Virus record (IMG/VR): IMGVR_UViG_3300006930_000010
Coordinates: 1 to 62,282 of that record
Length of the DNA: 62,282 nt
Source: a virus
Lineage: Duplodnaviria > Caudoviricetes
Direction: 5' to 3' (one strand)
Part shown: piece by piece, positions 7,079 through 62,193 of the stretch
Position numbering within the stretch: position 1 is the first letter of the stretch
How the letters are laid out: each line of letters opens with the position of its first letter
Notes under the pieces: generated by a model
Seen by the model: only the letters and a program-made list of their open reading frames with translations
Databases searched by the model: none
Told to the model about the DNA's origin: nothing
Translations under genes and position numbers: made by a program

Positions 7079-7103
7079 AGAAAAAGCACCATATAGGTGC
7101 TTT
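7079..7103 (-). terminator. intrinsic terminator for primase operon
   Basis: AAAGCACC-ATATA-GGTGCTTT with A tract on + strand. Confidence 0.65.
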
Positions 7104-21275: not shown

Positions 21276-21277
21276 GT

Positions 21278-21517
21278 ATGAAGGCAAGTAAGGCACAAAA
21301 AGTACAACAGATGGAAACTTGGTTAATCGGTCGCGATATACAGTTTAAGAGTTTACAGAATGGACACATACAAATATTCGATCCAAGAACACAGGAGCTT
21401 AAATATCAGATGTGGGTTACCACTGAGAAGTTAAAAGAGCATAATCCAGGTGGAGAAGAAAAGGTGTGGATCGGACTTGCCGCAATACAGAACAAACTGA
21501 GGAGAGAGTATGAATAG
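21278..21517 (+). CDS. hypothetical protein
   Basis: ORF inside que operon. Confidence 0.6.
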   Translation: MKASKAQKVQQMETWLIGRDIQFKSLQNGHIQIFDPRTQELKYQMWVTTEKLKEHNPGGEEKVWIGLAAIQNKLRREYE

Positions 21518-22112
21518 CAAAAAGAAGAGACGACTGATGGAGGATGAGGTGGTTGGCGGACGAGCCAACCTCGTGTACGAGATATTGAAGACCATTCCGA
21601 AAGAGGACAGAGATCGTGCTGGTTTAGGAGACACACCTCTTCGAGTAGGATCTATGTATGACGAACTGTTTAGCGGATACCTACAGGACCCGAAAGAGAT
21701 TCTCGAGGACGCTATGTTTGTTGATGAAGGAAAAAAGAATGTTGTGTTAGTTAAAGATATACCATTCTATAGTACCTGTGAGCATCATATGATGCCATTC
21801 TTTGGAACTGTTACGATTGCCTATATTCCACAAGATGGTCGAATTGTTGGACTAAGTAAGTTAGCTCGACTAGTTGATGTGTTTGCCAGACGACTGCAAG
21901 TACAAGAACGTATTGGACAGCAGATTATGGATACGCTCAAAGAAGTAATGAATCCATTCGGTGCTGCTGTTATTATCAAAGCAAGACACACTTGTATGGA
22001 AGCTCGTGGAGTTAATAAAGTTGGAGCATATACGGTTACATCTACTCTGGATGGAGTGTTCTTTCTGGACGACAAAGCTCGTGATGAGCTATTCCAGTTA
22101 ATGCAGATATGA
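21510..22112 (+). CDS. folE: GTP cyclohydrolase I
   Basis: TPLRV, CEHHMMPF, GLSKLAR, RRLQVQER, HTCMEARG. Confidence 0.95.
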   Translation: MNSKKKRRLMEDEVVGGRANLVYEILKTIPKEDRDRAGLGDTPLRVGSMYDELFSGYLQDPKEILEDAMFVDEGKKNVVLVKDIPFYSTCEHHMMPFFGTVTIAYIPQDGRIVGLSKLARLVDVFARRLQVQERIGQQIMDTLKEVMNPFGAAVIIKARHTCMEARGVNKVGAYTVTSTLDGVFFLDDKARDELFQLMQI

Positions 22113-22453
22113 AGTCGATTGTAGTTAAAGCTCGGAAAGAGCTAATTCATCGATATGTTGACGCACCAGACGAAGTGTCCTTTCTAAGGGAGTGGCATCG
22201 TCATGAACTGCATATCGAGATGGAAGTTGACGTAAAACATTCTGATCGTGAGATTGAGTTCATCATGATTAAGAGAGAGCTGCAGTACCAATTGGATTTC
22301 AACATTAAGCTGATTAACGTTGAGAAGTCGTGTGAAATGATTGCTCAGGAAATCGCAGAGATATTTGCGATCAAACATCCAGGTCGAAAGATCAAAGTGA
22401 GTGTGTACGAAGATGGTGAGAATGGTGGAATTTACTACCATGGATTCAAATAG
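22109..22453 (+). CDS. QueD-like T-fold protein, candidate CDG decarboxylase (DpdL-like)
   Basis: LREWHRHEL (LxxxHRHx), DREIEF, SCEMIA, EDGENG; lacks the QueD CxxxHGH. Confidence 0.6.
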   Translation: MKSIVVKARKELIHRYVDAPDEVSFLREWHRHELHIEMEVDVKHSDREIEFIMIKRELQYQLDFNIKLINVEKSCEMIAQEIAEIFAIKHPGRKIKVSVYEDGENGGIYYHGFK

Positions 22454-22462
22454 GGGGAACTA

Positions 22463-23104
22463 ATGATTAATATAACAGATTATACAACACAAGCACTGAT
22501 GACAGTGAAAGATCATACATCAAAAGAGATGGCGATCGCTGACTGGGCCTTAGGATTAGGTGGTGAAACTGGAGAGGTTATCGAACTACTATCCTCTGGT
22601 GAACCTAATAAGATGGAATTAGCTAAGGAGCTAGGTGATATCCTATGGTACACGATCGCACTAGCAAATGAAGTAAATATAAACTTCCCATCTAATGCGT
22701 TTGAGGAATTAGATATCTTTGTGAATCGAAGTCATTGTACCACCTGTTTGACGGATACTAATCCCAGACAAACCGCCGTGTTGTCCATTATGACGAACAC
22801 GTGTGCAGCTCAGGAAAAAATGAAACATGCCATCATGCACAAAGAAGGATATGAAGGTAACAGCATTGAGGGAAAACTCAGTAATATTTTAGCAGGTATT
22901 GCGACAGTAGCCAAGCACTCTGGATTTACCTTATATAATGTAGCTGAACTCAATGCCGCAAAACTGGCCCATCGTTACAACGTAAAGAATGGAGGTCAGT
23001 ATTCAGTTGCGGCTAGTGCTGATAGACATGCGACTGAATCTAAGTTTGAAGATACAGCAGAGTTTAAGGCACTGTATCAAGCTATCACAGGCCTGGTATG
23101 CTAA
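22463..23104 (+). CDS. MazG-like NTP pyrophosphohydrolase
   Basis: LGLGGETGEVIE...KELGDILWY; N..KLAHRY. Confidence 0.8.
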   Translation: MINITDYTTQALMTVKDHTSKEMAIADWALGLGGETGEVIELLSSGEPNKMELAKELGDILWYTIALANEVNINFPSNAFEELDIFVNRSHCTTCLTDTNPRQTAVLSIMTNTCAAQEKMKHAIMHKEGYEGNSIEGKLSNILAGIATVAKHSGFTLYNVAELNAAKLAHRYNVKNGGQYSVAASADRHATESKFEDTAEFKALYQAITGLVC

Positions 23105-23625
23105 AGATCATTGTAGAGGGTATTGATAATGTAGGTAAGAGTACTATTGCTGGTCGTTTGGCTAAGCATTACCGCTTACCTTTATATCACGCAGAACGAC
23201 TAGATCGTGATCATATGATGCGAATTGTCACAGATGATATTATCAAGTGTGGACTGATGGACAAGGGCATTATCTTTGATCGATACTACACATCGGACAT
23301 TGTATATGAACCCCTGATGAAACATCAACCGTCACCGTTAGCTGAGCATATGGATGTTCTCTTGTCTAGATTGGACGAGATGGAATTCATTTATATCACC
23401 CTAGTGTGTACTCCAGCAGTAACGATTCAACGTTATGAGGAGTTGGGTGATGAGCTACAGAGTTTGAATACTATATTAGCTGCCGCTGATGGATATAAAA
23501 AATTGCATCGACTGATGAGCTGTAATAAGATTCTATTTGACGTATCCGAGCGGGATGTAGATTCAAATGTACGTATCTTAATTGAACTTATTGATCAACT
23601 GAAAACAGAAAGAGGTATAGAATGA
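23098..23625 (+). CDS. dNMP (thymidylate-like) kinase
   Basis: IIVEGIDNVGKST P-loop, FDRYYTSDIVY. Confidence 0.8.
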   Translation: MLKIIVEGIDNVGKSTIAGRLAKHYRLPLYHAERLDRDHMMRIVTDDIIKCGLMDKGIIFDRYYTSDIVYEPLMKHQPSPLAEHMDVLLSRLDEMEFIYITLVCTPAVTIQRYEELGDELQSLNTILAAADGYKKLHRLMSCNKILFDVSERDVDSNVRILIELIDQLKTERGIE

Positions 23626-24407
23626 AAGTAGCAACAATTCTTCCAACCCCCCTACTAGGCCAGGAACCTGCAACTGACTACAACATGTGTTTGTTTCATA
23701 TGGTTCGAGATAATGAGGAGTACGCAAAGTACTTTAGAACACTACGAGATCAAGGTAAGTTTGTTATCATGGATAACGGAGCCGCTGAGGGAGTTAATCC
23801 ATCTCCTGCTGAGCTGGCTGCTGTGTATAAGAAAGTACAACCCTCTGAGATCGTATTACCAGACATCGTATATGATAAAGAAGAAACTCTTCGAAGAACC
23901 AAAGAAGCATATATTCAGTTCTGTGACGAATTTATGCATCAACGATATCAGTTCATGGCCGTTCCTCAAGGTGAAACATTTCATGAGTGGCTGTCTTGTA
24001 TGACTGAGATGATGCAACAAAGACACATCACTACTATTGGAGTGTCTAAGTTCGTTACTCCGAAGTACCAGGAGGAGATGGGTAAGGGTACAAACGTTCG
24101 TTTAGAGTGCGTTGATGCCATTATTACTGAAGCAGCACGTCTTGGTGTTGCAATGCAGATCCATCTATTAGGTTGCTGGGATAATCCAGCAGAGGTTGGA
24201 GAGATTGACAGAGCCTTTGGAGATCGAGTACGAGGTACAGACTCCGCCATCGCTTATGTTTATACTCGAGCAGGCAAAATATACACACCAGATATCAACA
24301 GACCGGACAATACAGAAATTGACTTTAACCACGGTAGCACTGGTAAGGGTGACGTAGGTCTGCTTCAGCAGAATATGAACTCCTGGATAAAGTATTGCCA
24401 GGCATAA
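23622..24407 (+). CDS. TGT-fold protein, candidate DpdA-type 7-deazaguanine transglycosylase
   Basis: MDNGAAE, VLPD, MAVPQG, IHLLG, GTDS motif order mirrors TGT barrel; located in que cluster. Confidence 0.6.
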   Translation: MKVATILPTPLLGQEPATDYNMCLFHMVRDNEEYAKYFRTLRDQGKFVIMDNGAAEGVNPSPAELAAVYKKVQPSEIVLPDIVYDKEETLRRTKEAYIQFCDEFMHQRYQFMAVPQGETFHEWLSCMTEMMQQRHITTIGVSKFVTPKYQEEMGKGTNVRLECVDAIITEAARLGVAMQIHLLGCWDNPAEVGEIDRAFGDRVRGTDSAIAYVYTRAGKIYTPDINRPDNTEIDFNHGSTGKGDVGLLQQNMNSWIKYCQA

Positions 24408-24475: not shown

Positions 24476-26932
24476 ATGATTAGAAATGAAATGGGGAGAT
24501 TAGAAATGTCTCCATTACCTCCCGTGAAGAAAGCAAAGATCGTGATTATCGGTGAGTTTCCAAATGCTACCGAAATTAGAGAGGGACAGTACTTCATCAG
24601 TGATGGAGCAGATGTTTTACGGAAAACGTTAAGTCAATGTGGAATCTTGATTGAAGACTGCTATTTTACTGTAGCTTGTCCTTATTTAATGAGTAAGAAG
24701 AATAAAGTAATTCCACCAGAAAGATATCAGAGAGAACGTAATCGGCTACTACAGGAAATTAAAGATAGTGGAGCTACCCTAGTTATGCCTTTGGGTGCAT
24801 TTACAACTTGTGTTCTACTTAACAAGAAGGCACTACCAATTACTAGAGTATTGGGTAACCAATTAGATATAGCGGAATTACCTGGGGTATCAATTATACC
24901 TCAATATCATCCAGCTGTGTTGATGCACAATCCTGGTCAGTATAAGGTATTTCAGAATGTTATTAACACAGTAGCACAAGCTTACCTAGGACAGACATTA
25001 GATGCTGGAATCACTCAATGGTCATACTGCGAGTCTAGAGAAGAACTGAAGCAGCTGATTGAGGATGTACAGAAGCGACCATGGGTATCTGCCGATATTG
25101 AGACCACTCCAATTGGACATACGCCTGTACTTATATGGAATCTAGGAATACAGATCGCAAAGAATGTATCTAAGGTAGTGACGAGAGAAGCTATGGTGTT
25201 CCATCCAGACCTAATTAGACAATTATTCAGCCTTCCCACCTTGTGGGTTTGGCATCATGGTAAGTATGATACAACAGTATGGCATAATGCAGGATTTACT
25301 GAGGCCAGACTAGATCATGACACAATGTATCAACACTATTGCCTCAATGAAACAAATGGTACTCATAGCTTGGGTAAGTGTTCTACGGTATATCTTGGAG
25401 CTGATGAATATAAGAGTGAGATGAACTCACAGTTCAAATTCATTACGACTGAAGAAGAGTATTATAAACACAAAGACGCGTTATGTGCTCGTGTGGCAAT
25501 AGATGCCGACTACACAGGTCAGCTATTTGAAGTATTCAAACCTATGATTGAGAACGAACCTGATTTCGTAAAGCTCTACAATAAGATATTGATGCCAGCT
25601 GCCAACTTTCTACGCAAAGTAGAAATGCGAGGTATGAAGATCGATAGAGAGTATCTATTGAGTCGAGTACCATATTATGAGTCTGAAATCGAAGAGATGA
25701 CAACCGCGATCCAGGATGCAGCTTCTACGTTTTGGAATCAAGAGGCCTATCGAGAACAAACTGGAGCTAAGACCGCATCCGATGTATTTAAACCTACCAG
25801 TGTCAAGCAACTAGCTTGGTTGATCTATGATCGACTCAAGCTTAAACCCAAGTTACGAGGGGCTCCAAAAAGAGGTACGGGTGAGGAGGTACTTGAGTCT
25901 ATCGAGAACCCACCAGAGTTCATATTGCGTATTTTAGACCTTAGAAAGATCAAGAAGGAGTTTGCGACTTATGTTATGAGCTATCTCAAGTGTGCTGATA
26001 CTGATGACATTGTGCATCCGACATTCAACTTACATATTACCGCAACAGGACGACTGAGTTGTGTTGAGCCTAATGTACAGAATGTACCAAGTGGTAAGGC
26101 AGAAGTACGAGACTCTTTTGTTCCTAGAGGACCTGGTCGAGTATTGATGGAGGTGGATTATTCTGGAGCTGAGTTACGAGTTCTAGCTTATCTATCTAAC
26201 GACAAGAAGCTTACAGAGGCACTTGTTAATGGTGACCTACATAGTGAGGTTGCTGTAAGTATCTTTGGTGATGCATACACAAATGGTACTTCTCAAGAAA
26301 TGAAGAACCTGCGAGGAAAAGCTAAGACTGTAAACTTTGGTATTGCATATGGTCGAGGAGCTGGAGATCTATCGAACACATTTGATGTGACGAAGGAAGA
26401 AGCTCAACGCTGGATTGATACTTGGGCTCTTATGTATACAGACGCCTGGGCTTATCTACAATCATGTGAGGATGCTGTACGTCGAGGTGAAACATTAACA
26501 ACTCTGTTTGGACGTCATCGACGATTTGGTTTGATTCATCAAGGGAATATTAAGTCACTGTCAAACGAGGCTAAGAACTTCCGAGTTCAGAGTATCTCAT
26601 CAGACAATACACTACTGGCAGCTATGGAAGCAGATTCAACACTCGAGTACACATACGACGCATACATTATTAATTTAATCCATGACTCTGTGTTAATTGA
26701 TTGTCCTGCCGATCCAGCTACAGTGAAAGCGATCGCATCCTATATGATGAAGGTGATGGTGGAAACGCCTATTAAAGAATATAATTGTACAGTCCCATTC
26801 CACTCAGATGTTGATATCGGAGCTCGTTGGGGTTCTCTAGCATCCTACGATGTCGACACAGAAACAGTAAACTACAAGAAAGAGGAGTTCAGCTATTCAG
26901 ACTGGATTCAATCAAAAGGTGTGTCCTTCTAG
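24476..26932 (+). CDS. polA: family A DNA polymerase with N-terminal UDG-like domain and 3'-5' exonuclease
   Basis: GEFPN...HPA UDG-like; DIET exo; ATGRLS, DYSGAELR, KTVNFGIAYG, IHDS. Confidence 0.93.
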   Translation: MIRNEMGRLEMSPLPPVKKAKIVIIGEFPNATEIREGQYFISDGADVLRKTLSQCGILIEDCYFTVACPYLMSKKNKVIPPERYQRERNRLLQEIKDSGATLVMPLGAFTTCVLLNKKALPITRVLGNQLDIAELPGVSIIPQYHPAVLMHNPGQYKVFQNVINTVAQAYLGQTLDAGITQWSYCESREELKQLIEDVQKRPWVSADIETTPIGHTPVLIWNLGIQIAKNVSKVVTREAMVFHPDLIRQLFSLPTLWVWHHGKYDTTVWHNAGFTEARLDHDTMYQHYCLNETNGTHSLGKCSTVYLGADEYKSEMNSQFKFITTEEEYYKHKDALCARVAIDADYTGQLFEVFKPMIENEPDFVKLYNKILMPAANFLRKVEMRGMKIDREYLLSRVPYYESEIEEMTTAIQDAASTFWNQEAYREQTGAKTASDVFKPTSVKQLAWLIYDRLKLKPKLRGAPKRGTGEEVLESIENPPEFILRILDLRKIKKEFATYVMSYLKCADTDDIVHPTFNLHITATGRLSCVEPNVQNVPSGKAEVRDSFVPRGPGRVLMEVDYSGAELRVLAYLSNDKKLTEALVNGDLHSEVAVSIFGDAYTNGTSQEMKNLRGKAKTVNFGIAYGRGAGDLSNTFDVTKEEAQRWIDTWALMYTDAWAYLQSCEDAVRRGETLTTLFGRHRRFGLIHQGNIKSLSNEAKNFRVQSISSDNTLLAAMEADSTLEYTYDAYIINLIHDSVLIDCPADPATVKAIASYMMKVMVETPIKEYNCTVPFHSDVDIGARWGSLASYDVDTETVNYKKEEFSYSDWIQSKGVSF

Positions 26933-32495: not shown

Positions 32496-32973
32496 ACTCC
32501 TTCGTAATTTTAATTTTTAATTTCTTCGCCTGGTAATACAGCGTGTCACCTGTTCCATTACCGTCCAGGTTATTGTAGGCTGTATGCAGGAATGTTAGGT
32601 TCTCCAAGGCCGCGGTACTTATCTCACCTTTATCAATGTAATGTTCACATGCTTGGAATAGGCGATCTCTTAGTATGGCCCGCTGGCCCTCAATCATGGA
32701 ATCCATCACAACAATCTTCTCTTCTTGTCGGGTACTAACCTCTTCAATACGCTTTGTAAGCGCTCCACAGGCTTCTTCTTGGCTGCTATAGATTTTTTCT
32801 ACCTCCTCTCGGAACTCTTCGCAGCGATCATCAATTGTTTGCTGGATGGCTACATGTGGCGCTCCAAATAGAAAACGCCAAAGTTTCAACCATCCATCCC
32901 ATATCTTGTTCCCGAAGGTTAAGAAAGTCAGCACCCCAGCGACCACCGCAACTACAACTTGATATTGTTCCAA
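32482..32973 (-). CDS. lysis-module membrane protein
   Basis: N-terminal TM, coiled coil, LRDRL...YNNLDGNG motif common beside Firmicute phage holins. Confidence 0.6.
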   Translation of the reverse strand: MEQYQVVVAVVAGVLTFLTFGNKIWDGWLKLWRFLFGAPHVAIQQTIDDRCEEFREEVEKIYSSQEEACGALTKRIEEVSTRQEEKIVVMDSMIEGQRAILRDRLFQACEHYIDKGEISTAALENLTFLHTAYNNLDGNGTGDTLYYQAKKLKIKITKEYDYE

Positions 32974-33023
32974 TAGATACCTCCTGATGTCATATTATCT
33001 ATGTTAAAGCTACAAGCTTTGTT

Positions 33024-34517
33024 TTATGCCCATGTCAGATCGTATGTGACTCTAAGTACCTGTCCGGCAGTCTTTACTACCGGTGTATCTAAATTACAAA
33101 TACTGAATAGTGTACGTCTAGCAAAGCCTAGCTCCAAATAATTATAACAGCTAGTATAATTGTAGCTAGCACAATTCAAAAGGCATGTTGGGCGTGTGCC
33201 AAAATTCAGCATAGGGGATAGTGCAGTAAAGTCAGTACCTGCAGCCACAAGTGGATTCGCATTCAGTACTATAGAGTTACCATCATCTGAAGTAAACAAT
33301 TCTAAGTGTCTATTGCATGCATACGCTTGGTTATTAGAGTACCATGAGAGATAATTATAATCACACGCATAGTCACCTTCTACTGTTCGATAAGTTAGTA
33401 TATTTCTGTTCCATCCATAGATATAACCAGCTGCCGGTAGGTTAGGCACAGCTATGCTACTATACGTATTAGCTACTGTATCTACAGCATACAGTACGGG
33501 TATGCTAGTCGCAAGCGTGCCATTCATAGAGCTAAGTATTATGAATTTTCCACATAAGCCCCAATCATAGATAGTTACACCATTTACGCAACTTACCTCG
33601 GTTATAGATGTGGTTAGTAAAGACGTTTTGTCTACATATGCTATAGCTCTATTACCAGTTGGAGCAGTCCCAAAGATAATGTATTGATTTTCATCAGCAT
33701 CGTCTACAACCTTAAAAACATCTGAGAAGCCTGATGCTGCAACAAGTTGCTTAGTTACATTAGTCCATAGTGGTCCAGCAGTAGCCCCTAACTTTATTTT
33801 TGAACGTGTTACCATATGCGCCCCAGCCTGCGAGTAGGCGAAGTCGCTATTATCTAATATAGAGGCTACCCTCCTGCCTCCTTCGAAGGCCCCTACACTT
33901 GGTGAGTACCCACTACATACATTTGGTATGCTGGCTTTGCTGGTATCACTATTACCAAATGAGAAATTAATTACATTAGATGCAACCTGTGTCATTCTTT
34001 TACTGACTGTGTTGTCACAATACTCACGAGTAGTTAAGCATGCAGAGGCTATAGTGCCGTTAGCTGTGTTAGCTGCAAAGTCCCACACCATGCGTATACC
34101 TCGCTTTGTGCCCTGCTCGTTTAAGATGTCTACAGCAGATACTAACGAACCTTTTGTAGCTGTTGGAGTAGCTACAGTACTACCTGCAAAAGCTAGAGGT
34201 ACCTTGCGACTAACATAACCATTATTTGCGGCGCTTTTTGCCTCATTAAATAGCACAAGGCCAAACGTGCTTGGAGCTAACAAGTTATCAGTCCCCAGAA
34301 ACTTAGGTGCTATAGCTTGCACACTGCCCTGGTAAGGTCCACCAGACGTATTATACAGATTAACTAGATCCTGTAGGAAATCCGTTAACGGTGGTAGTAC
34401 TACATTATCTTTTTCTTGCGTGGCTAGCACTGTTCCGCTAGCGTTTAAAACATCAAATTTTACGTGTCCTTGCATTTGTTCCTCCTTATGAAACGGTACT
34501 TCCCATACCATCGACAA
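33024..34517 (-). CDS. tail/baseplate-associated protein
   Basis: beta-rich; WDFAANTANGTI and PVVKTAGQVLRVTYDL motifs; tail module. Confidence 0.6.
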   Translation of the reverse strand: MSMVWEVPFHKEEQMQGHVKFDVLNASGTVLATQEKDNVVLPPLTDFLQDLVNLYNTSGGPYQGSVQAIAPKFLGTDNLLAPSTFGLVLFNEAKSAANNGYVSRKVPLAFAGSTVATPTATKGSLVSAVDILNEQGTKRGIRMVWDFAANTANGTIASACLTTREYCDNTVSKRMTQVASNVINFSFGNSDTSKASIPNVCSGYSPSVGAFEGGRRVASILDNSDFAYSQAGAHMVTRSKIKLGATAGPLWTNVTKQLVAASGFSDVFKVVDDADENQYIIFGTAPTGNRAIAYVDKTSLLTTSITEVSCVNGVTIYDWGLCGKFIILSSMNGTLATSIPVLYAVDTVANTYSSIAVPNLPAAGYIYGWNRNILTYRTVEGDYACDYNYLSWYSNNQAYACNRHLELFTSDDGNSIVLNANPLVAAGTDFTALSPMLNFGTRPTCLLNCASYNYTSCYNYLELGFARRTLFSICNLDTPVVKTAGQVLRVTYDLTWA

Positions 34518-54958: not shown

Positions 54959-55361
54959 TGACTACCTCCTGCCTTTTGGCGGTTCCCTCAATAGAGAACA
55001 TTTTATACACACCACTCTTGACTTTTTGATAAGCAACACGATCGTCGATCTTGAAACCTACCCACCAGCCCTCAGGTACAATCCCTTCTGGGATTCCCAT
55101 TGTGGCCATCTTGGCTTTTGTAAACATCACAGATTCAACCAAAGCACCATTAACTGAGTTGGGAGCGTGCATGTCATTAGACTCTCTAAAGTCTAAATTA
55201 AACTTATACACGGCAGTTTCTAAGGTTTCTGGATCTATAATATCTCCTTGCCAATCAAGAGGGTAACTACCAGTGGCGTCCTTCGCAACCGATGCCCATC
55301 CAAAGACTAGTTGTTCATCGTCATTCGACTTTGCTATCTTCAGGCTTTGCTGGTTTTCCAT
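54951..55361 (-). CDS. XkdF-like putative prohead protease
   Basis: LVFGWASV, DMH, VES, WWVGFK, FSIEG. Confidence 0.75.
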   Translation of the reverse strand: MENQQSLKIAKSNDDEQLVFGWASVAKDATGSYPLDWQGDIIDPETLETAVYKFNLDFRESNDMHAPNSVNGALVESVMFTKAKMATMGIPEGIVPEGWWVGFKIDDRVAYQKVKSGVYKMFSIEGTAKRQEVVND

Positions 55362-56736
55362 CTACTGGTACCTCCTTTTCATTTGGTAATCCTGTCTGAA
55401 CAAGTGGTGGATTTTCTGCCAGCTCTAAAGCCGACTCCAGCCCCTTATCATAAATCTTTTGTTTCAGTTCGAGCACCTCTGCAGCATTTGCTGGCATGGA
55501 TGATACCTTACGGATATACTCTTCCAATGCTGGGTCTTTCACATTCATACCTACGCTAGACATTGAGGTTAACATTTTCGATAACTGCTCTAAATCCGGT
55601 GTTTCAACTTCATCTGGCTTGATCGTGGGGTAGTTGTCTACCTCCCAATTATTCATTTCCAGTAGTCGTGGTATCTCTTGTGTATTGACCACTCCAGCTA
55701 TAATAGCTAACAATGTTTCCAATGAAGCACAAAGCAAACTTTTCTTAACATCGGCTAACGCAAATGATCCTACTTTATCTGCTCCCAACATGACGATATC
55801 AGCGAGTAACGTAATGGCTATTCGTTGATCATATCTGTTTAGTATCTCATTGGTATCGAACTGCCTCTGTGACCCTGTGCTTAGAAGTTTTAGTTCCCAA
55901 CCAAACGGGTACACAACGCCCTCTGACTGGTCTCTCCGGATGTTCTTGACGAGTTGCTCTGATAGGTTCTTCAATACAACCATCTCAGGATCTGTGGCTT
56001 CCCAAATATTCACACCTTCTGGTGGAATCAATACAGGCAAACCAGCAAGATCTCGTTCAATCCCGATACCCTCTATCTCCTCAATCCTCTTTTTAAAGAA
56101 CCAAGGTCGATATGCATTTCTCAGAAGGGATCTGCCGTAGGGGTTACCAAATTCGTTTTCAGTCTTGAAGTGCAAGGCTTTTTCGATTGGGATCCGTCGA
56201 ATCCTGTAATCTGGTGCAGCCTGCTGCAACAAAGCTAGTATTTCTCCATTCTCTTGGTCGATATCCCAACCATAACACGTTAATTGTGATCGTCCTGGAA
56301 GCTTGCGCCAACCAATCTTACCGTCCTTAAACTTACTGTTTAGTCGTTTATCTCTGTTTCGACCAGCTCTGATCTTGTATACCACCTCGTGATAACTCCA
56401 ACCAAAGACCAACGAGGTTAACACCTCTCCAATAAAGTCGCCCCAGCTGGACTCCATATCGTCCATACATGTCTGTATAAACTCTGCAGCCTCTAAATCT
56501 GTTGCAGATCCACCTCCCGGAACAACCTGCCACATTACACGTCTTACTAATTGCTTCGACATGTATACAATAGCCCCGATAGTAGGATCGTTCTTAGACA
56601 TCTCCTCAAACACCTTGCCAGCCTGTGGCCAGTTTAGTTGAGGTATAAAGTCATTTCGAACAAAATCTCCACTGAAGTCGAATCCAGCAATACCATACTC
56701 AGATAGAACCTTCTCTACTCGCTCTTCTTCGTTCAC
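55321..56736 (-). CDS. portal protein
   Basis: FGWSYHEVVY, NPYGRSLLR, GSFAL; follows TerL. Confidence 0.85.
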   Translation of the reverse strand: MNEEERVEKVLSEYGIAGFDFSGDFVRNDFIPQLNWPQAGKVFEEMSKNDPTIGAIVYMSKQLVRRVMWQVVPGGGSATDLEAAEFIQTCMDDMESSWGDFIGEVLTSLVFGWSYHEVVYKIRAGRNRDKRLNSKFKDGKIGWRKLPGRSQLTCYGWDIDQENGEILALLQQAAPDYRIRRIPIEKALHFKTENEFGNPYGRSLLRNAYRPWFFKKRIEEIEGIGIERDLAGLPVLIPPEGVNIWEATDPEMVVLKNLSEQLVKNIRRDQSEGVVYPFGWELKLLSTGSQRQFDTNEILNRYDQRIAITLLADIVMLGADKVGSFALADVKKSLLCASLETLLAIIAGVVNTQEIPRLLEMNNWEVDNYPTIKPDEVETPDLEQLSKMLTSMSSVGMNVKDPALEEYIRKVSSMPANAAEVLELKQKIYDKGLESALELAENPPLVQTGLPNEKEVPVDGKPAKPEDSKVE

Positions 56737-56759: not shown

Positions 56760-58178
56760 TTAACCGTAGTACGAAGCCTCATCCCAGTAACTGACCTGCT
56801 CTCCAACTATTGTTGGGAACTGACCCGTGTAACTTGGTGTTGATGATAATACTGCGATGGCTCCTGATAGAGCATCGATGATATCATCGTGCGATCCACC
56901 AGGAAAACTCTCTGCTTCATTAAAGAATTCCACAATATTCGGACATGTACTTAGAATCTTAATTCTCTGCTTAGCTGCCAATGCACTTACTGGATTGGCT
57001 CGTTCCACTTTATTACCAGAACTTCTAATACCTGTAAACTTATATCCTTTGAATACATTGTCCTCATAGTGTTTAAGAGCTATAATCCCCGAACTACCCG
57101 GTTCTTGTTCCATACAGATCGGAACCTTTTTGCCATCACTCATAGCCACCTGCTTTTGGTCAACTTGAGTTTCTCCTGGAGCTTTTCTAACTCGGAAGAT
57201 GTCCTCTATGTAGTATATTCCACGATAGTGACTTACTTTAATCCCTACGGTGTAATCTGGATCTGCACTCTTACGTTTTCTCTTAGCAACTTCTGGATCA
57301 GTAGCGGCCATATCCCAATATCGAACAGTTTGTCGGTACGGAGGTAGCATATCTACTGCCTGAAACCACTCTCTTTTGAACATATTCCCCTTACGGACAA
57401 TAGTCCAAACACCATCTCGTAGACGGGCTCGAGTAACTGGATCAAGAACTTCCAGCATTTCTCGGTATTCATCTGCATCTAGGTAAGGGTTATCGTCCAT
57501 ACCGGCAGGAACGAACAATACACCAGGCTTTTTCGTCTCTGGATTAACAAATCTGTTATATACCCAGATACCCTGATCATCATCTGGTGGATTTGACGTT
57601 CCTCTTACCTTTATTGGGATGTCTACGCCCTTTAATCGACGTAGTCGTGAGAATATATACTTATAGTTGGTCTCGGACATATGTACGAGCTCATCAAATC
57701 CTGCATACTGGTACTCACCACCCTGGTAATTGTACTTGTCGTTCTCATTTTCCAGATAACCGAACTGTAATACCGATACTGTATCAGTATGTCGTCCATA
57801 TCGTTCGATGAATTCGAACTTACGATCCTTCTCACGCCATACAACGTTGTCAAATCGAGATAACCACTCTTTAGCTCTGTCGATGAGAGCTCCCGGTTTT
57901 ACTAAATCAGCAAATGTCTGCCTAAACAGTATCGCCGAATACCCTTTCACGTCGCTATATTGCAACGCATCCATAAGTAACGCGTCTGATTTACCGCCAC
58001 CAGCGGAGCCCCCAAAGAATGCTTCCCTACACTGTAGGTTCATAAATACCTGTTGTTTCGGTGTTGGAGTATGTAAACTATACTTTAAGCTCTTAGGCTC
58101 TAGCATCGTCAACATTTCTCGTATTTGCTTTCCGTTCAGTTGGTGGATTTTGTTCCAATCAATGTTGGCTTCCATCAT
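56760..58178 (-). CDS. terminase large subunit
   Basis: GGSAGGGKS, FDEL, SNP, WDMA, HDDIIDA. Confidence 0.93.
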   Translation of the reverse strand: MMEANIDWNKIHQLNGKQIREMLTMLEPKSLKYSLHTPTPKQQVFMNLQCREAFFGGSAGGGKSDALLMDALQYSDVKGYSAILFRQTFADLVKPGALIDRAKEWLSRFDNVVWREKDRKFEFIERYGRHTDTVSVLQFGYLENENDKYNYQGGEYQYAGFDELVHMSETNYKYIFSRLRRLKGVDIPIKVRGTSNPPDDDQGIWVYNRFVNPETKKPGVLFVPAGMDDNPYLDADEYREMLEVLDPVTRARLRDGVWTIVRKGNMFKREWFQAVDMLPPYRQTVRYWDMAATDPEVAKRKRKSADPDYTVGIKVSHYRGIYYIEDIFRVRKAPGETQVDQKQVAMSDGKKVPICMEQEPGSSGIIALKHYEDNVFKGYKFTGIRSSGNKVERANPVSALAAKQRIKILSTCPNIVEFFNEAESFPGGSHDDIIDALSGAIAVLSSTPSYTGQFPTIVGEQVSYWDEASYYG

Positions 58179-59028
58179 CTATCACCTCAGCTTCTACAAT
58201 CTCAACTTCTGCCTCAGGCTCGATTAGTCCCAACTTGTTCATAACGTTTAATACCTGCGACAGTCTTGTCTTGTCTTCTTCTAGCTTCCCAGTTACTAGC
58301 TGAGGAGCTTCTCCAGATCCTCCACTAACGGCACCCACATTGTTCTGAATATTCAGAATTTGTCGTGGAGCACCTCTGCCTTCCATAGAAGCCATACCAG
58401 TGGAGGCTCTTTCTAGCTTTACAGCCACGTCTAACATTTGCATTGCAACTTTAGGTGTCAGTAAATCTTCGTGTTCGAGGAGATATTTAGAACTGATTCG
58501 GTACAACTGTTCTGCTGTAGTAGCATGTCTATGTTCTATTTCAGCTCGTCTGAGTTCTAATTGTTCTTGTCTTTCCTGCTCTACGTAATTATCATAGGCT
58601 GTGACTCTTGCCTGCCAATGATAAGCCTGTCGGATAATCTCGACATGCTTGACTGCACTACCGACTTCCGCAGCGAGCTTAAATACTGCTCGTGATTCCT
58701 TCGTTGTGCGCATATTACGATAACGTTTAAACAGTCCATAGAACTCTATGGGTTCTCCATCCATGTGTTCCCAGATCGGGATTCCTTCGATGGTGGGCAG
58801 ACCCTCCAGATAACTTATCGGAAGGACTGCCCCCTCGGGAGGATTGTCTAATAGGTCATCTATGGGGGTGCGGAAGCCCGTCGCTAACAGAGCTTGAGGA
58901 TTGACCAATGACGTTGGACGTCCATATGTATCCAAAGGTTGCGCGTTCTGTAATTGTCCAACATATCTTTTCAGTGTGGACATCATATCGACATAAGGTT
59001 GATCCCATTTCGCTAATTCTGTTGCCAT
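58159..59028 (-). CDS. hypothetical protein, candidate terminase small subunit
   Basis: GAGGAG RBS before MATEL; upstream of TerL; FKRYRNM...WQARVTAYD. Confidence 0.55.
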   Translation of the reverse strand: MATELAKWDQPYVDMMSTLKRYVGQLQNAQPLDTYGRPTSLVNPQALLATGFRTPIDDLLDNPPEGAVLPISYLEGLPTIEGIPIWEHMDGEPIEFYGLFKRYRNMRTTKESRAVFKLAAEVGSAVKHVEIIRQAYHWQARVTAYDNYVEQERQEQLELRRAEIEHRHATTAEQLYRISSKYLLEHEDLLTPKVAMQMLDVAVKLERASTGMASMEGRGAPRQILNIQNNVGAVSGGSGEAPQLVTGKLEEDKTRLSQVLNVMNKLGLIEPEAEVEIVEAEVIDDGSQH

Positions 59029-59063
59029 TGTTGATTTCTCCTCTCCCAAGATCCTATATTAAC

Positions 59064-59092
59064 ATTATCCTATATTCGTCGAAATAAGTCAA
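59064..59092 (-). promoter_or_regulatory. promoter for structural operon
   Basis: TTGACT-17-GATAAT on - strand. Confidence 0.6.
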
Positions 59093-59532
59093 CGATTATC
59101 CCAATTATTTTTATTATCTCTACGCGTGCCGGCGACGCTATCTATGCACGGTACAGGCACCTTCGATCCTAGTTGCCCAAAGAAACCTCGAGTGAGGTCG
59201 ACCTACGGCCTACCTCCCTGAGTACCATTTGTTGAGGGCCCACTGGCGTAGCTAGCTTCCGGCGGCTGTGTCTGGGACCTATGATCCCAACAGTCCATGG
59301 ACATTTGTACATGGTATTAGACTGCGACCGCGCAGTTTATTTCTCACGACCGCGGGAGCGGGTGCAAAGCTATCTTCCTGGTCTAGCGTTAGCCTCATAT
59401 GCTGCGCATATTCGGAATGGGTGCAAAGCTATCAGCTTGTCTCGGCTGACCTCATGCGTTTCACGCATTCGGGTGGGATCACTGAGATGCGGTATGTTAT
59501 GACGGGAGAGTGGGAAAGCAACTTACTGCACC

Positions 59533-59582
59533 ACTTTATTAGTTTAAAGTGGTTTTGCTTTATTAGTTTAATGTGGTAAAGT
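59533..59582. repeat. two copies of 26-bp quasi-palindrome (left boundary of island)
   Basis: ACTTTATTAGTTTAAAGTGGTTTTGC, GCTTTATTAGTTTAATGTGGTAAAGT. Confidence 0.75.
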
Positions 59583-59791
59583 ATTTATATTAATTTAGTA
59601 TGATTGATTAGATAGTAGTTTAGTATGAATTAATTGATAGTTGTTTAGTATGTTTTAATTTATATTAATTTAGTATGATTAATATTATATTAGTTTGATA
59701 TGTGATATAGTATAGTAGTATAGTATGATATAATATATATAGTATAGTAGTATGGTATATAGTATAGTATATAGATATGTTATATATGATA

Positions 59792-59870
59792 GGGGTATAT
59801 AGGGGGGGTATATAGGGTATATATGTGGGGGGTATATAGGGGGGTATATAGATGGGTGTATATAGGGGGG
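59792..59870 (+). repeat. G-run/TATATA repeat, potential G-quadruplex
   Basis: seven G3-G7 runs separated by TATATA-like linkers. Confidence 0.8.
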
Positions 59871-59891
59871 AAAATAAAGTTAAAATAATAG

Positions 59892-59920
59892 TTGATTTAT
59901 AGTAGTAGTTAATGTATAAT
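59892..59920 (+). promoter_or_regulatory. C-free sigma-A-type promoter P1
   Basis: TTGATT-17-TATAAT. Confidence 0.8.
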
Positions 59921-59953
59921 ATAATTAAGAAATAAATAAATGAGAGGTTTGAA

Positions 59954-60199
59954 ATGAAGTTTAATAATTTTAAAGATGTTGAGAAGTATTTAGGATATGA
60001 GTTAGATTATGAGTATGATTTAGATGAAGTTGTTGGTGGTAATGATTATTATGTATATGAAGATGGAGAGTTTGAAGATATGATAATGGTTGTAAATGAT
60101 TGTTATTATTGGGTGGTAATAAGAGATGATGAAGTTAGATTTGTGTTAGAGGATGATGAGATTGAAAGAAAGATAATAGAGGATATATTGGGATTATAA
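59954..60199 (+). CDS. acidic early protein (no A/P/T/Q/H)
   Basis: GAGG RBS, own promoter, paralog of 61121-61378. Confidence 0.85.
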   Translation: MKFNNFKDVEKYLGYELDYEYDLDEVVGGNDYYVYEDGEFEDMIMVVNDCYYWVVIRDDEVRFVLEDDEIERKIIEDILGL

Positions 60200-60243
60200 G
60201 ATTAGGGTGGGTGGGTGGGAATAATAAATAATTAAAATAGTAG

Positions 60244-60272
60244 TTGATATATAGTAGTATTTGTAGTATAAT
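60244..60272 (+). promoter_or_regulatory. C-free promoter P2
   Basis: TTGATA-17-TATAAT. Confidence 0.8.
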
Positions 60273-60306
60273 ATAATTAAGAAATAAATAAATGGAGGTT
60301 TTAGAA

Positions 60307-60696
60307 ATGAAGTTTAAGAATGATGTAGTAAATGTAGAGTTTGATTTGGTAGAGTTGTTTGTGAAGAATTTGAATAATGAGAAGAGTAAAGTTGTAAGAT
60401 GTAAGAGTAAGAGTGAAGTTTTTAGAGTGTTGTATGATTTGGGAATGGATGTAAGTGAGATTAGTAGAGAAGGAGGGTGTCATTTTAGTTTTGTGTATGG
60501 AGTAGTGAGTAAAGGTTGTAAGATGAGAGAGAAAAAGAGTGGTAGTAAGAGTGATGTGATTAGAAAGATGGTATTGGAAGGAAAGAGTTGTGGTGAGATT
60601 AGTAAAGAGTTGAATAGTAATTATAGTTTTGTGTTTAGTGTTGTTAAGAAGTATAAGAATAGTGATGAGTATAAGAAAGTAGAAAAAGTGATTTAA
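60307..60696 (+). CDS. tandem HTH-repeat DNA-binding protein
   Basis: GGAGG RBS; two SKS..(F/I)R.....G....EIS.E....(F/Y)SFV repeats. Confidence 0.85.
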   Translation: MKFKNDVVNVEFDLVELFVKNLNNEKSKVVRCKSKSEVFRVLYDLGMDVSEISREGGCHFSFVYGVVSKGCKMREKKSGSKSDVIRKMVLEGKSCGEISKELNSNYSFVFSVVKKYKNSDEYKKVEKVI

Positions 60697-60706
60697 TAGA
60701 AGATAG

Positions 60707-60746
60707 AAAATAATTATTATGTAGAGATATGTAATAATTATTTTTT
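60707..60746 (+). terminator. C-free hairpin terminator
   Basis: 17-bp stem with 2 G-U pairs, GAGA loop, U tract. Confidence 0.7.
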
Positions 60747-60756
60747 AATTTAATTG

Positions 60757-60785
60757 TTGTTTTTTATTGGTGTTTATGTTATAAT
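60757..60785 (+). promoter_or_regulatory. C-free promoter P3
   Basis: TTGTTT-17-TATAAT with TG extended -10. Confidence 0.7.
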
Positions 60786-60819
60786 ATAATTAATAAATAA
60801 ATTATAGGAGGTTATGGTT

Positions 60820-60984
60820 ATGGATGTTAATAAGTTATTGGTGTTATTGGATGAAGATGTAAATGTGGATGATGTGTTGTTAGGATTGGATGATAATGAA
60901 AAATATTGTGTGTTAAATTTGATGTTGGTGTTTGATAAGTTAGATGGTAAGTTTGAGTTAATATTTAATAGTATTGATAAGTAA
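60820..60984 (+). CDS. small acidic protein (not in ORF track)
   Basis: AGGAGG RBS; MDVNKLLVLLDEDVNVDDVLLGLDDNEKYCVLNLMLVFDKLDGKFELIFNSIDK. Confidence 0.75.
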   Translation: MDVNKLLVLLDEDVNVDDVLLGLDDNEKYCVLNLMLVFDKLDGKFELIFNSIDK

Positions 60985-60996
60985 TAAGTAATAGTT

Positions 60997-61050
60997 ATAA
61001 ATAAAGATTAATTAATAGTTAGGAATAATTATTAATTAATTTTTATTTAT
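60997..61050 (+). terminator. C-free hairpin terminator
   Basis: 25-bp stem with 2 G-U pairs, GGAA loop. Confidence 0.7.
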
Positions 61051-61057
61051 TTAATAG

Positions 61058-61086
61058 TTGATTTATAGTATGAGTTGTGGTATAAT
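61058..61086 (+). promoter_or_regulatory. C-free promoter P4
   Basis: TTGATT-17-TATAAT with TG extended -10. Confidence 0.8.
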
Positions 61087-61120
61087 ATAATTAAGAAGTA
61101 AATAAATAGGAGGTTTAGAG

Positions 61121-61378
61121 ATGGAGTTTTTTAGTTTAGATGAGTATTTGAGTTTTGTGGAATTAGATGGTGAAGTAAGTGATGAGTTAAGAAAGAAGTG
61201 GTTAGATAGAATAAATGGGAGGAAAGTGTATATAAATGTAGATGGTGATGTTGAGAATGTGATAGTAGTATTAGATGATAATGAGTATTATTGGGGAATA
61301 GAGAGTAAGAATGATGTAAGATTTGTTGAGATTGAGAAAGAGTTGATTGATGAGTGGAAAGAGAATGATTTAATATAA
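61121..61378 (+). CDS. acidic early protein (no A/P/T/Q/H)
   Basis: AGGAGG RBS; paralog of 59954-60199. Confidence 0.85.
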   Translation: MEFFSLDEYLSFVELDGEVSDELRKKWLDRINGRKVYINVDGDVENVIVVLDDNEYYWGIESKNDVRFVEIEKELIDEWKENDLI

Positions 61379-61404
61379 ATAATTAAATTTTTATTAAATA
61401 GTTG

Positions 61405-61433
61405 TTGTGTTTTAATAGGAATTGTAGTATAAT
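61405..61433 (+). promoter_or_regulatory. C-free promoter P5
   Basis: TTGTGT-17-TATAAT. Confidence 0.65.
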
Positions 61434-61463
61434 AAGTATATAGAAAGATATGAGGTGAAAGAA

Positions 61464-61646
61464 ATGAATGATGTGATTAGAAAGTTGTTTGAAGATGATT
61501 TGGAAGAAAGTGGTTTGAGTTTTGAAGAATATGTTGAAGAAGGAAATATGGATTTGAGTTTTATGAATATTGTGAGAGATGGAATTGATGAAGAAGTTGA
61601 AGATGAAGTTGTTGTGAAAGTTTGGAATGAGTTTAAGTTAAGATAA
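61464..61646 (+). CDS. small highly acidic protein
   Basis: GAGGTG RBS before ATG 61464; D/E-rich. Confidence 0.8.
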   Translation: MNDVIRKLFEDDLEESGLSFEEYVEEGNMDLSFMNIVRDGIDEEVEDEVVVKVWNEFKLR

Positions 61647-61669
61647 ATAGTTAAATATGAATTGATATG

Positions 61670-61717
61670 AATAAGAATTAATTAATAGTTAGAAATAATT
61701 ATTAATTAATTTTTATT
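61670..61717 (+). terminator. C-free hairpin terminator
   Basis: 22-bp stem with 2 G-U pairs, GAAA loop; near copy of 60997-61050. Confidence 0.7.
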
Positions 61718-61862
61718 TGTTGTTAGGAATAATTATTAATTAGGATGAGTTGGGTAGTTAGGAATAAGTTTTAATTAAGAATTGTTATTAGTTAGGAATT
61801 AAATGAATTTTAAATTGATTTAATTATTTGTTAGGAATGATTAGGAATTAAGAATGATTGTT

Positions 61863-62073
61863 ACTTTAGTAGTTTAAAGTGGTAAAGTGGAGTGGGTCAC
61901 TTTACTAGTTTAAAGTGATAAAGTTAACTAGGTTAACTTTAGTAGTTTAACGTGGTAAAGTGTTTGGGTCTATATTAGTATATTATGATATAAGGATTAC
62001 CCTATGGAACTTTACCACTTTAACGTGGCAAAGTGCGACTGGGTCCTACTTTACCAGTTTAACGTGCTAAAGT
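61863..62073. repeat. five copies of 26-bp quasi-palindrome (right boundary of island)
   Basis: starts 61863, 61899, 61936, 62009, 62048; idealised palindrome ACTTTACCACTTTAAAGTGGTAAAGT. Confidence 0.85.
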
Positions 62074-62129: not shown

Positions 62130-62158
62130 TTGACTTTCTCTTTAAGACGTAGTATAAT
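62130..62158 (+). promoter_or_regulatory. sigma-A promoter
   Basis: TTGACT-17-TATAAT. Confidence 0.75.
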
Positions 62159-62193
62159 AAGAGTATCAAATAAAGAAAGAGAGTGTGAGTCAA

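Follow-up and report, generated by a model that had tools for sequence, protein, structure and literature searches.

Why would a phage write five consecutive genes, together with their control signals and flanking DNA, in only three of the four nucleotides? The locus that raises this question lies near the right end of the IMG/VR record of a Caudoviricetes virus, IMGVR_UViG_3300006930_000010 (62,282 nt, linear, estimated to be 95% complete), which was analyzed as a whole and is referred to here as the window. On the + strand, positions 59559–61863 contain 859 A, 575 G, 870 T and one C in 2305 nt. This tract is a native, selected and recurrent C-free cassette of early type, and the question it poses is what kept the cytosines out.

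A 2.3-kb tract written in three letters

Since C makes up ∼20% of the remaining window, chance is excluded as the origin of the tract (0.8^2305). The lone C at 60481 splits it into two C-free runs, 60482–61863 (1382 nt) and 59559–60480 (922 nt), which are the longest of the window; the third longest measures 49 nt, and the longest runs free of A, G or T reach 30, 50 and 28 nt, respectively. The A+T content of the tract is 73%. Its five genes contain 0–0.2% C compared to 18.8% (standard deviation (sd) 2.9, minimum 11.1%) in the 81 other open reading frames (ORFs), and none of the 86 non-overlapping ORFs of the window (5 in the tract and 81 elsewhere) has an intermediate C content.

The + strand of the tract harbors five ORFs of 81, 134 (129), 56, 85 and 63 (60) codons, each with a probability of 2e-8 to 7e-4 of being open by chance given 12.3% stop triplets at the composition of the tract. 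Their translations use 15 amino acids plus a single His, and Ala, Pro, Thr and Gln are absent. In the window's normal genes, Ala, Pro, Thr, Gln and His together account for 23.8% of the protein, and C-containing codons specify 60% of Leu, 60% of Arg and 69% of Ser. An initial annotation had described the tract as a near C-free 2.3-kb module of five genes with intact promoters, ribosome-binding sites (RBSs) and terminators and with this reduced amino acid alphabet, and every detail of that description which we checked proved correct. Its statement that no such system had been described also holds, as full-text literature searches yielded nothing comparable and no description of a natural base-free coding tract. 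The biological role of the tract may still prove to be a known one, namely pre-early anti-defence.

Five monocistronic units with promoters, RBSs and terminators

The tract consists of five monocistronic units, all on the + strand and each with its own σ70-type promoter and GGAGG-type RBS. Unit 1 (59892–60199) comprises the promoter TTGATT-17-TATAAT (59892–59921) and gene 1 (59954–60199, 81 aa). Unit 2 (60244–60747) carries the promoter TTGATA-17-TATAAT (60244–60273), the gene 2 ORF (60292–60696) and a terminator (60704–60747). In unit 3 (60757–61050; repeat families D2, D6 and I5), a promoter at ∼60757–60785 precedes gene 3 (60814/60820–60984, 56/54 aa) and its terminator (60997–61050). Unit 4 (61058–61378) has the promoter TTGATT-17-TATAAT with a TG element (61058–61087) and gene 4 (61121–61378, 85 aa), and unit 5 (61405–61725; repeat families D7 and I12) has a promoter at ∼61405–61433, gene 5 (61455/61464–61646, 63/60 aa) and a terminator (61670–61717). 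The starts of genes 2 and 5 are likely the RBS-proximal ATGs at 60307 and 61464, which match the recorded 129-aa (gene 2, P0098) and 60-aa (gene 5) forms.

Four copies of a 101-nt promoter-leader-RBS unit share 71–74% identity with the reference copy; the fifth, in front of gene 5, has diverged further. The repeats have diverged by 26–29%, yet not a single C has been gained. The genome contains eight promoters of the class TTGAYW-N16-18-TATAATA where 0.08 would be expected, and every one of them lies on the + strand. Five of them lie outside the tract (388, 2268, 10810, 19285 and 62130) and read TTGACT or TTGACA, and the three inside read TTGATT or TTGATA, so that position 5 of the −35 hexamer is C in 5/5 promoters outside and T in 3/3 inside. 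Thus, even a normally invariant C position has been altered within the tract. The two weaker inside promoters, as read from the sequence, are also devoid of C. The first promoter of this class beyond the tract (62130–62159, +, with TTGACT) drives the first gene of normal composition (62197 onward).

The terminators after genes 2, 3 and 5 are stems of 20–29 bp made of A-U and G-U pairs only, followed by U runs, with folding energies of −16, −20.9 and −20.6 kcal/mol, respectively (z −4.9 to −6.5). The one of gene 3 is a 25-bp A-U hairpin (z −6.5) and that of gene 5 likewise an A-U hairpin (z −5.2). No hairpin terminator was found after gene 1, where instead a G-quadruplex motif of four GGG runs with 1-nt loops (60205–60219, +) directly follows the stop codon; nothing obvious was seen after gene 4. 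The tract mRNAs fold at −0.07 to −0.13 kcal/mol per nt, compared to −0.236 (sd 0.045) for other small ORFs, and thereby more weakly than all 40 of these.

The C-free state extends beyond the units. The 330 nt before the first strong promoter are devoid of C. They include tandem repeats with a 25-nt period (59558–59757, +; family D1, in which six 75-nt copies overlap at a spacing of 25 nt) and an array in which G runs alternate with TATATA (59792–59876, +; family D17), with a G-quadruplex-type motif at 59792–59817; an extended −10-like site near 59726 was read from the sequence. Downstream of the last terminator, ∼150 nt are C-free, and five copies of TTAGGAAT spaced ∼35 nt apart are found there (61723–61848, +). 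Six of the eight genomic TTAGGAAT copies lie within the tract, and a further copy forms the AGGA loop of the gene 3 terminator. They may serve as operators on the DNA or as GGA motifs in an RNA that acts like a CsrA sponge.

Both ends of the tract are marked by a 21-nt hairpin-forming repeat (iteron) with seven matches in both orientations (0 expected). Two copies form the left boundary (59533–59577, +; family D8; two hairpins, −18.4 kcal/mol, z −3.8), and five, direct and inverted, the right one (61863–62068, +; families D5, D8, I3, I7 and I9; −32.3 kcal/mol, z −5.5). The boundaries are exact: the last C before the tract (59558) and the first C after it (61864) each occupy position 2 of the 21-nt repeat.

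The cassette encodes four small acidic proteins and a tandem helix-turn-helix protein

Thus organized, the tract is a cassette of four small acidic orphan proteins and one protein with tandem helix-turn-helix (HTH) units, with near-consensus promoters, strong RBSs and terminators. The products of genes 1, 3, 4 and 5 have isoelectric points (pI) of 4.05, 4.05, 4.13 and 4.05, respectively, and net charges of −8 to −18. Genes 1 and 4 are paralogous (37% identity over 52 residues, E 2e-7). Family scans assigned none of the four to a Pfam or PHROG family, and searches of collections holding 1.8 and 5.8 billion proteins returned no match for genes 1, 4 and 5 other than the proteins themselves; for gene 1, the sole match among 1.84 billion representatives was the protein itself. 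A structural look-up of gene 4 in the ESM Atlas returned only neighbors with template-modelling (TM) scores ≤0.55 and no common function.

The gene 2 protein is basic (pI 9.1) and has 91 homologues (91/95 candidates at E ≤ 0.01). It matches Pfam HTH families below the cut-off only, and the family alignment revealed an internally duplicated HTH unit with two repeats of the motif SKS-x3-R-x(8-10)-EI-x(6-7)-(H/N)YSFV-x-(G/S)V and 13 invariant columns. In an AlphaFold2 model based on a 38-sequence alignment, three short strands are followed by two three-helix units (predicted local distance difference test, pLDDT, 84.7). Foldseek gave weak matches to bipartite HTH domains (best E 0.056, TM at most 0.32), namely those of a CRISPR-repeat-binding protein, SETMAR, IstA, Tc3 and Mu Mor. 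The likeness to the Tc3, SETMAR and IstA transposases and to Mor lies in the two predicted HTH units after a small beta region; unlike these, gene 2 has no transposase or recombinase catalytic domain, and the matches are weak. The gene 2 product is most simply read as a sequence-specific DNA-binding protein, and the flanking 21-nt repeats are candidate binding sites for it.

The sole C of the tract is the first base of the CAT codon (60481–60483, +) for His64 of gene 2, within the motif HYSFVYGV. At least 90% of the 38 family members in the alignment retain this residue, as do 8 of the 10 low-C members described below. Thus, the single exception falls where the gene 2 protein needs a C-containing codon.

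Low-C homologues recur in related phages

Database searches with the tract itself detected no relatives among 50,697 phage records, neither by blastn in distant mode nor by tblastn with gene 2, and a scan of IMG/VR with the single gene 2 protein gave none either. Relatives were found through other routes. Among 47 TerL-related IMG/VR loci, one (L006; TerL 62% identical) has a 300-nt segment with at most 6 C. Its gene 2 homologue contains 4 C in 372 nt (1.1% vs 16% background), and the 247 nt upstream contain none; the leftover Cs fall in the −35 hexamer, the leader and the terminator. A second case is G001, a complete record of 60,447 nt with 53% G+C that is syntenic with the window at 23–59% protein identity. 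Here the gene 2 homologue has 3 C in 285 nt (1.1% vs ∼25% background) and an upstream flank with 4.7% C, and the low-C tract is unique within the complete genome. In both L006 and G001 related repeats with the core AGTTT(T)AA..TGGT, as read from the sequence, lie upstream of the low-C gene. The gene 2 homologue is co-oriented with terS in these two genomes, and in the window the cassette is divergent from terS. A 93%-identical low-C gene 2 homologue was found on another contig.

Profile-guided scans for gene 2 relatives gave three loci in IMG/VR, three in metagenomes and one in genomes, counting tblastn-confirmed loci only; many pattern matches from these scans that lack tblastn confirmation stand outside these counts. 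Among eight loci with a gene 2 homologue (L006 and L051–L057), two are at 1.1% C, two intermediate (L051 7.9%, L054 10.7%) and four near normal (L052, L055, L056, L057), and the gene 2 homologues of L004, L007, L011 and five copies in G002 have 11–21% sense-strand C. A low-C state specific to the gene family was rejected on the basis of the homologues in L004, L007, L011 and G002. Of two motif patterns written in C-free codons, one found only G001 and the other nothing.

At the protein level, 6 of the 91 database homologues of gene 2 contain at most 3% Ala+Pro+Thr+Gln+His. Together with the window, L006, G001 and P0101, they make up the ten low members placed on the gene 2 family tree, a quick maximum-likelihood IQ-TREE run in which many forks are unresolved. 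On this tree the low-C state requires five changes at best, and the well-supported branches force at least three. Compositional attraction would oppose the observed scatter of low-C members over the tree.

Several features of these relatives lie apart from base composition. G002 (L076), a phage fragment, encodes at 2475–7227 a cluster of at least five tandem-HTH paralogues of normal composition (13–21% sense C) beside terS, and G001 has a second gene 2 paralogue of normal composition (L053, 7803–8366). The window does not encode two further gene 2 homologues, P0008 and P0021, in which Ala+Pro+Thr+Gln+His amount to 24% and 14%, respectively; contig statistics identical to those of the window's own proteins (3 contigs, longest 66,032 nt) suggest that they probably belong to the same genome, in 3.75 kb absent from the window. 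The TerL homologue of L006 (3458–5938) has 826 aa compared to 472 aa in the window, with a large insertion after the Walker region that is intein- or homing-endonuclease-like in look, and a separate HNH-type ORF (1868–2308) lies directly upstream of terS. Directly before its C-free flank, L006 also has a G+C-rich non-coding block (604–803) comparable to the one adjoining the tract in the window, which is described below.

The tract is native and under selection

The promoter class and the bounding repeats are common to the tract and the surrounding DNA of normal composition. Proteins identical to those of genes 1 and 4 are recorded on three contigs (JGI/IMG, Logan and ENA, possibly from one sample). 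The gene 5 protein (P0102) is also listed on three contigs. The longest contig with the gene 1 and gene 4 proteins measures 66,032 nt, and 62,282/66,032 corresponds to 95%, equal to the completeness estimate for the window.

Comparison with the gene 2 family reveals how the C-free state was reached. At conserved columns occupied by Ala, Thr or Pro in homologues of normal composition, the low-C members carry Ser in 26 cases (A>S 19, T>S 7) and replace Pro by Cys, Val or Ile. Direct products of C>T changes are rare there (A>V 1, T>I 0), and T is not in excess at fourfold Val and Gly sites, with GTT at 31% of Val codons vs 44% predicted by C>T replacement. The Ala/Thr to Ser pattern and the absence of a T excess at Val sites led us to reject passive C>T decay. 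Avoidance at the level of amino acids or tRNAs was rejected as well, because the non-coding DNA is also C-free. These observations show, indirectly, that purifying selection at the nucleotide level, rather than decay or artefact, maintains the absence of C.

The phage carries a phiST-type 7-deazaguanine cluster

Among the explanations offered by the initial annotation, the first, a host RNA polymerase that needs a template without 7-deazaguanine, presupposes that the phage can modify its guanines, and the gene content bears this premise out. The + strand at 20025–24407 carries a phiST-type cluster of QueD (20025), QueE (20685), FolE (21510), a DpdL-like protein (22109), MazG (22463), a kinase-like protein (23098) and a DpdA3-like protein (23622). 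The assignments include FolE (PF01227, 1.7e-64), QueD (PF01242, 6e-29) and a radical SAM, QueE-like phrog (1.3e-40). The QueD-like protein of 114 aa carries the DpdL signature L-R-E-W-H-R-H-E-L, with L rather than F at the last position; DpdL is a QueD paralogue in which LxxxHRHxF replaces CxxxHGH (PMC10516641). The DpdA3-like protein (P0093, 261 aa) matches phiST gp042 (32601–33173) with E 1e-15 and 28% identity over 74% of the query, and also a 'DNA guanine transglycosylase' of Flavobacterium phage immuto_2-6A (E 1e-5). QueC and the canonical TGT Pfam family were not detected in the window genome, the latter as expected because DpdA3 is a distant subfamily. According to the same paper, the combination of DpdA3 and DpdL without QueC is accompanied by complete replacement of G, in phiST by 7-deaza-2'-deoxyguanosine (7-deaza-dG) (PMC10516641). 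The gene set suggests that the virion DNA of our phage probably carries 7-deazaguanine.

Cellulophaga phage phiST has the same genes in nearly the same order beside a polymerase gene, with only the positions of MazG and DpdL swapped relative to the window, so that the DpdL-like gene of the window lies one gene ahead of the position of phiST gp040. A base-free tract is absent from phiST and from the two other complete phages that encode a homologue of the putative DpdA3 (Bacillus phage BSP7 and Weizmannia phage Youna2), and none of the three contains a base-free run longer than 83 nt; nor is such a tract mentioned for phiST-type systems in the passages of PMC10516641 that were consulted. G001 has homologues of QueD, QueE, DpdL and DpdA3 and lacks FolE. 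In G003, which is 54% complete, QueD, QueE, FolE and DpdL are present, and no tract or gene 2 homologue was found in that part. The tract and the DpdL and DpdA3 homologues occur together in 2/2 complete or nearly complete tract genomes, both from one phage lineage.

The cluster is followed by a family A DNA polymerase (PolA, 24476–26932) with an N-terminal domain of the UDG superfamily (PF03167, 1.7e-11). Elsewhere, a ThyX-like protein with an N-terminal extension of ∼175 residues and an overlapping HD-domain protein (13237–15118) are encoded; both are absent from the syntenic G001 and may provide a second nucleotide-level modification or salvage function. Two HNH-type endonuclease genes lie at 438–1247 and 11895–12488, and the genome also encodes a PrimPol-D5 helicase, an ATP ligase, a SNF2 helicase, a PD-(D/E)XK nuclease and an anaerobic ribonucleotide reductase. 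The structural genes are on the − strand, as are the genes for the Mu-type portal (55321–56736), TerL of the Terminase_6 family (56760–58178) and the small terminase subunit gene terS (58159–59049), which is divergent from the tract. Between terS and the tract lies a non-coding stretch of ∼480 nt (59050–59532) with normal to high G+C content and a 15-nt repeat, GGGTGCAAAGCTATC, at 59360–59374 and 59419–59433; it matches no Rfam family and could be a packaging site or a structured RNA. Across the whole window, Rfam gave 0 matches at the gathering score, and no tRNA genes were found.

A cassette that stays uncuttable and template-clean?

We tentatively favor the reading that the tract is an immediate-early takeover cassette, kept free of C so that it stays uncuttable and template-clean at the level of DNA. 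Several small genes, each with a strong host-type promoter and RBS, are what an early cassette would be expected to contain, and this is what we find. In this model, an immediate-early ('pre-early') cassette would be transcribed first after infection and serve host takeover, and the constraint would be on the DNA duplex, in which all G:C pairs of the tract have one orientation. Recognition sites that require both G and C within a single strand would then be impossible in the tract, which would exclude all G/C-containing palindromes and most type I and type III sites. Given a probable replacement of G by 7-deazaguanine, its template strand would also lack the modified base, and modification-directed nucleases or glycosylases would produce neither double-strand breaks nor template damage within it. 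The cassette would thereby stay intact and transcribable, while other incoming DNA is at risk, until its products act.

A demand at the DNA level is favored by the C-free −35 hexamers, the C-free upstream flanks (330 nt here and 247 nt in L006) and the C-free 3′ flank. This is not conclusive, since the extended −10-like site near 59726 and leaky A-U terminators could make a single transcription domain of the whole tract. That the C-free strand is always the sense strand does not discriminate between the hypotheses: any demand for one orientation of the G:C pairs would leave C out of the sense strand, which without G could provide neither a start codon (ATG, GTG or TTG) nor a GGAGG.

The closest precedent for such a layout is phage T5. 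According to 10.1101/866236, EcoRI cuts and CRISPR targets only the pre-early first-step-transfer DNA of T5, pre-early functions shield the remaining genome, and repeats in direct and inverted order form, together with palindromes, a non-coding array at the boundary. Of the further explanations in the initial annotation, the impossibility of palindromic restriction sites with G/C is the only one to gain indirect support, from the C-free promoter hexamers and flanks and from this precedent. The repeat and palindrome boundary may be a likeness to the T5 first-step-transfer region, although the arrays of the window share no sequence with T5; moreover, T5 avoids particular sites, whereas the tract omits a whole nucleotide. 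No homologues of T5 A1, A2 or dmp were found, four of the proteins being without Pfam or PHROG family and gene 2 showing weak HTH matches only. A second comparison is Bacillus phage SPO1, whose terminal redundancy carries a host-takeover module of very small genes, mostly without known function, each with its own strong early σA-type promoter and strong RBS. This module is not known to be depleted of any base and has no sequence similarity to the tract. Phage genomes commonly avoid restriction sites, as selection removes the recognition palindromes. In contrast, here one letter is gone from 2.3 kb of one strand, and AT-only palindromes are kept. Synthetic G-less or C-less cassettes and reduced-alphabet genes, from which transcripts are made with three nucleoside triphosphates (NTPs) and proteins with reduced amino acid sets, are laboratory constructs, whereas the tract is natural, conserved and multi-gene.

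Could general palindrome avoidance suffice? We rejected this candidate, since the tract contains AT-only palindromes and palindromes with G and C are not avoided elsewhere: GATC occurs 280 times outside the tract (286 expected). In leaving such palindromes in the rest of its genome, the phage resembles T5. The only 4-nt palindrome that is clearly under-represented outside the tract is CATG (193 vs 275 expected, ratio 0.70, z −4.9).

Several points weigh against an uncuttable, template-clean cassette. This reading has to assume that the tract enters first, that it sits at a physical end and that injection is stepwise, and the Terminase_6 TerL with a Mu-type portal is compatible with headful packaging, which gives permuted ends. 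Moreover, ∼480 nt of DNA with normal C content separate terS from the tract. AT-only palindromes are even enriched in the tract (ATTAAT 14 vs 5.9, TAATTA 19 vs 6.0 expected), and C-free type IIS or bacteriophage exclusion (BREX) sites are still possible there. We know of no defence that targets 7-deazaguanine DNA. L006 and G001 retain terminator hairpins with G-C pairs as well as some Cs in their promoters. phiST, BSP7 and Youna2 have a DpdA3 homologue but no tract, and tract and DpdA3 are found associated in a single phage lineage. Transcription may also cover the flanks, from upstream promoter-like sites and through leaky A-U terminators, in which case the argument for the DNA level loses its force. 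Finally, all five proteins lack an assigned function.

Other explanations for the absence of C

The alternative that survives best, although we consider it doubtful, is that the transcripts rather than the DNA must lack C. Its variants, several of which the initial annotation had raised, include RNA synthesis independent of cytidine triphosphate (CTP), resistance to 3′-deoxy-3′,4′-didehydro-CTP (ddhCTP) made by viperin-like enzymes, escape from endoribonucleases of the MazF/PemK type that cut at C-containing sites, a lack of loading of Rho, which binds C-rich RNA, and nearly unstructured mRNAs for immediate translation. The weak folding of the tract mRNAs relative to all 40 other small ORFs fits the last of these, and the near-absolute exclusion would fit a cost paid for every C. 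In each of the three genomes it is the sense strand that lacks C, despite the inversion of the window cassette relative to terS, but this coupling is forced by start codons and RBSs under any hypothesis. The leftover Cs of L006 and G001 concentrate in the terminator, past the stop codon, where chain termination would be harmless. To account for C-free −35 hexamers, 330 nt upstream and ∼150 nt past the last terminator, an RNA-level constraint requires upstream promoters and read-through; the tract might indeed be one transcription domain closed by the hairpin repeats. However, Rho or a single RNase motif would not demand zero C, the transcripts are rich in G and thus show no general thrift with NTPs, and none of the invoked defences is known for the host.

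Erosion of cytosine by deamination, with mutational robustness clearing the remainder, is unlikely. In this scenario the non-template strand of a heavily transcribed region is exposed as single-stranded DNA, and its Cs decay to T, spontaneously or through an enzyme. The depletion is indeed strand-specific, G is not depleted, the −35 hexamers inside and outside the tract differ by C>T, Val is doubled (13.4% vs 6.3%), the relatives are graded in C, and the phage polymerase bears a UDG-superfamily domain. The substitution record speaks otherwise: changes from conserved Ala and Thr to Ser need transversions, where deamination would yield Val and Ile, and neither the fourfold Val and Gly sites nor the frequency of GTT (31% vs 44% predicted) shows the expected gain of T. 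The sharp boundaries, the lack of intermediates among the 81 other ORFs and the C-free flanks also argue against erosion. To our knowledge, no defence based on DNA deaminases acts against phages.

Still less probable is the explanation that the initial annotation had placed first, namely that host RNA polymerase (RNAP) cannot read 7-deazaguanine templates and early genes therefore need a G-free template. In its favor are the phiST-type cluster with DpdA3 and DpdL in the window, the homologues in G001 and the reported full modification of DpdA3 phages (PMC10516641). It is weakened on four counts. First, B. subtilis and E. coli RNAP transcribe 7-deazaG templates fully and very efficiently in vitro, and it is bulkier groups that inhibit, at initiation and via the −35 G, which is here in the non-template strand (PMC4838386). 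Second, a search for a single-subunit RNAP, made without a positive control, found no phage enzyme in the window genome or G001, so that all other genes, whose templates contain G, presumably depend on the host enzyme. Third, the same promoter class drives C-containing genes, and fourth, 3/3 complete phages with a homologue of the putative DpdA3 lack a tract. In addition, the C-free state reaches past the transcribed parts. For the DNA-level reading preferred above, it matters that unsubstituted 7-deazaG is reported in the same paper as an exception that does not fully block type II enzymes (PMC4838386).

We give slightly less credit again to an origin of replication, at which maximal GC skew and strong promoters would form RNA:DNA hybrids (R-loops) that prime replication, with the repeats as iterons for a tandem-HTH initiator. 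The iteron arrays, the A+T content of 73%, the G runs, the site of divergent transcription, the two-domain HTH protein encoded beside the repeats and the related repeats upstream of the low-C gene in L006 and G001 would fit such an origin. However, R-loops do not need a total absence of C over 2.3 kb of coding DNA, and gene 2 has no homology to known initiators in Pfam, PHROG or Foldseek searches. An artefact, such as an assembly chimera, chemically converted reads or a synthetic spike-in, is barely credible given the intact ORFs, the promoter class and repeats shared with the flanking normal DNA, the identical proteins recorded from three sources, the 93%-identical low-C homologue on another contig, the low-C trait of related phages in other records and the fact that C>T conversion of normal genes would make stops rather than Ala>Ser changes.

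A natural three-letter expression system

The complete exclusion of one nucleotide over 2.3 kb of multi-gene coding DNA is a very strong compositional constraint. It demonstrates that three letters suffice for promoters, RBSs, terminators and folded, presumably functional proteins, with A-U stems of 20–29 bp and a G-quadruplex motif substituting for the G-C hairpins of terminators. The constraint must reflect a strong selective agent that acts via C in the sense strand or G in the template. Candidate agents are restriction, modification-directed nucleases, immunity based on nucleotide analogues or nucleotide depletion, C-specific RNases and deaminases, and the cassette is a ready-made probe for identifying the one responsible. 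It also links a rare DNA hypermodification, 7-deazaguanine of the DpdA3 type, to the design of early genes, and it offers parts for CTP-independent expression.

As a possible though tentative synthesis, the tract might be a natural A/G/T expression system that evolved more than once as a self-immune first-strike module, able to work in the face of defences directed at C in RNA or single-stranded DNA or at (modified) G in the template. If this is true, the three-letter cassette would reveal a so far undescribed kind of antiphage immunity that targets C or G, or a way in which phages with 7-deazaguanine counter such defences.

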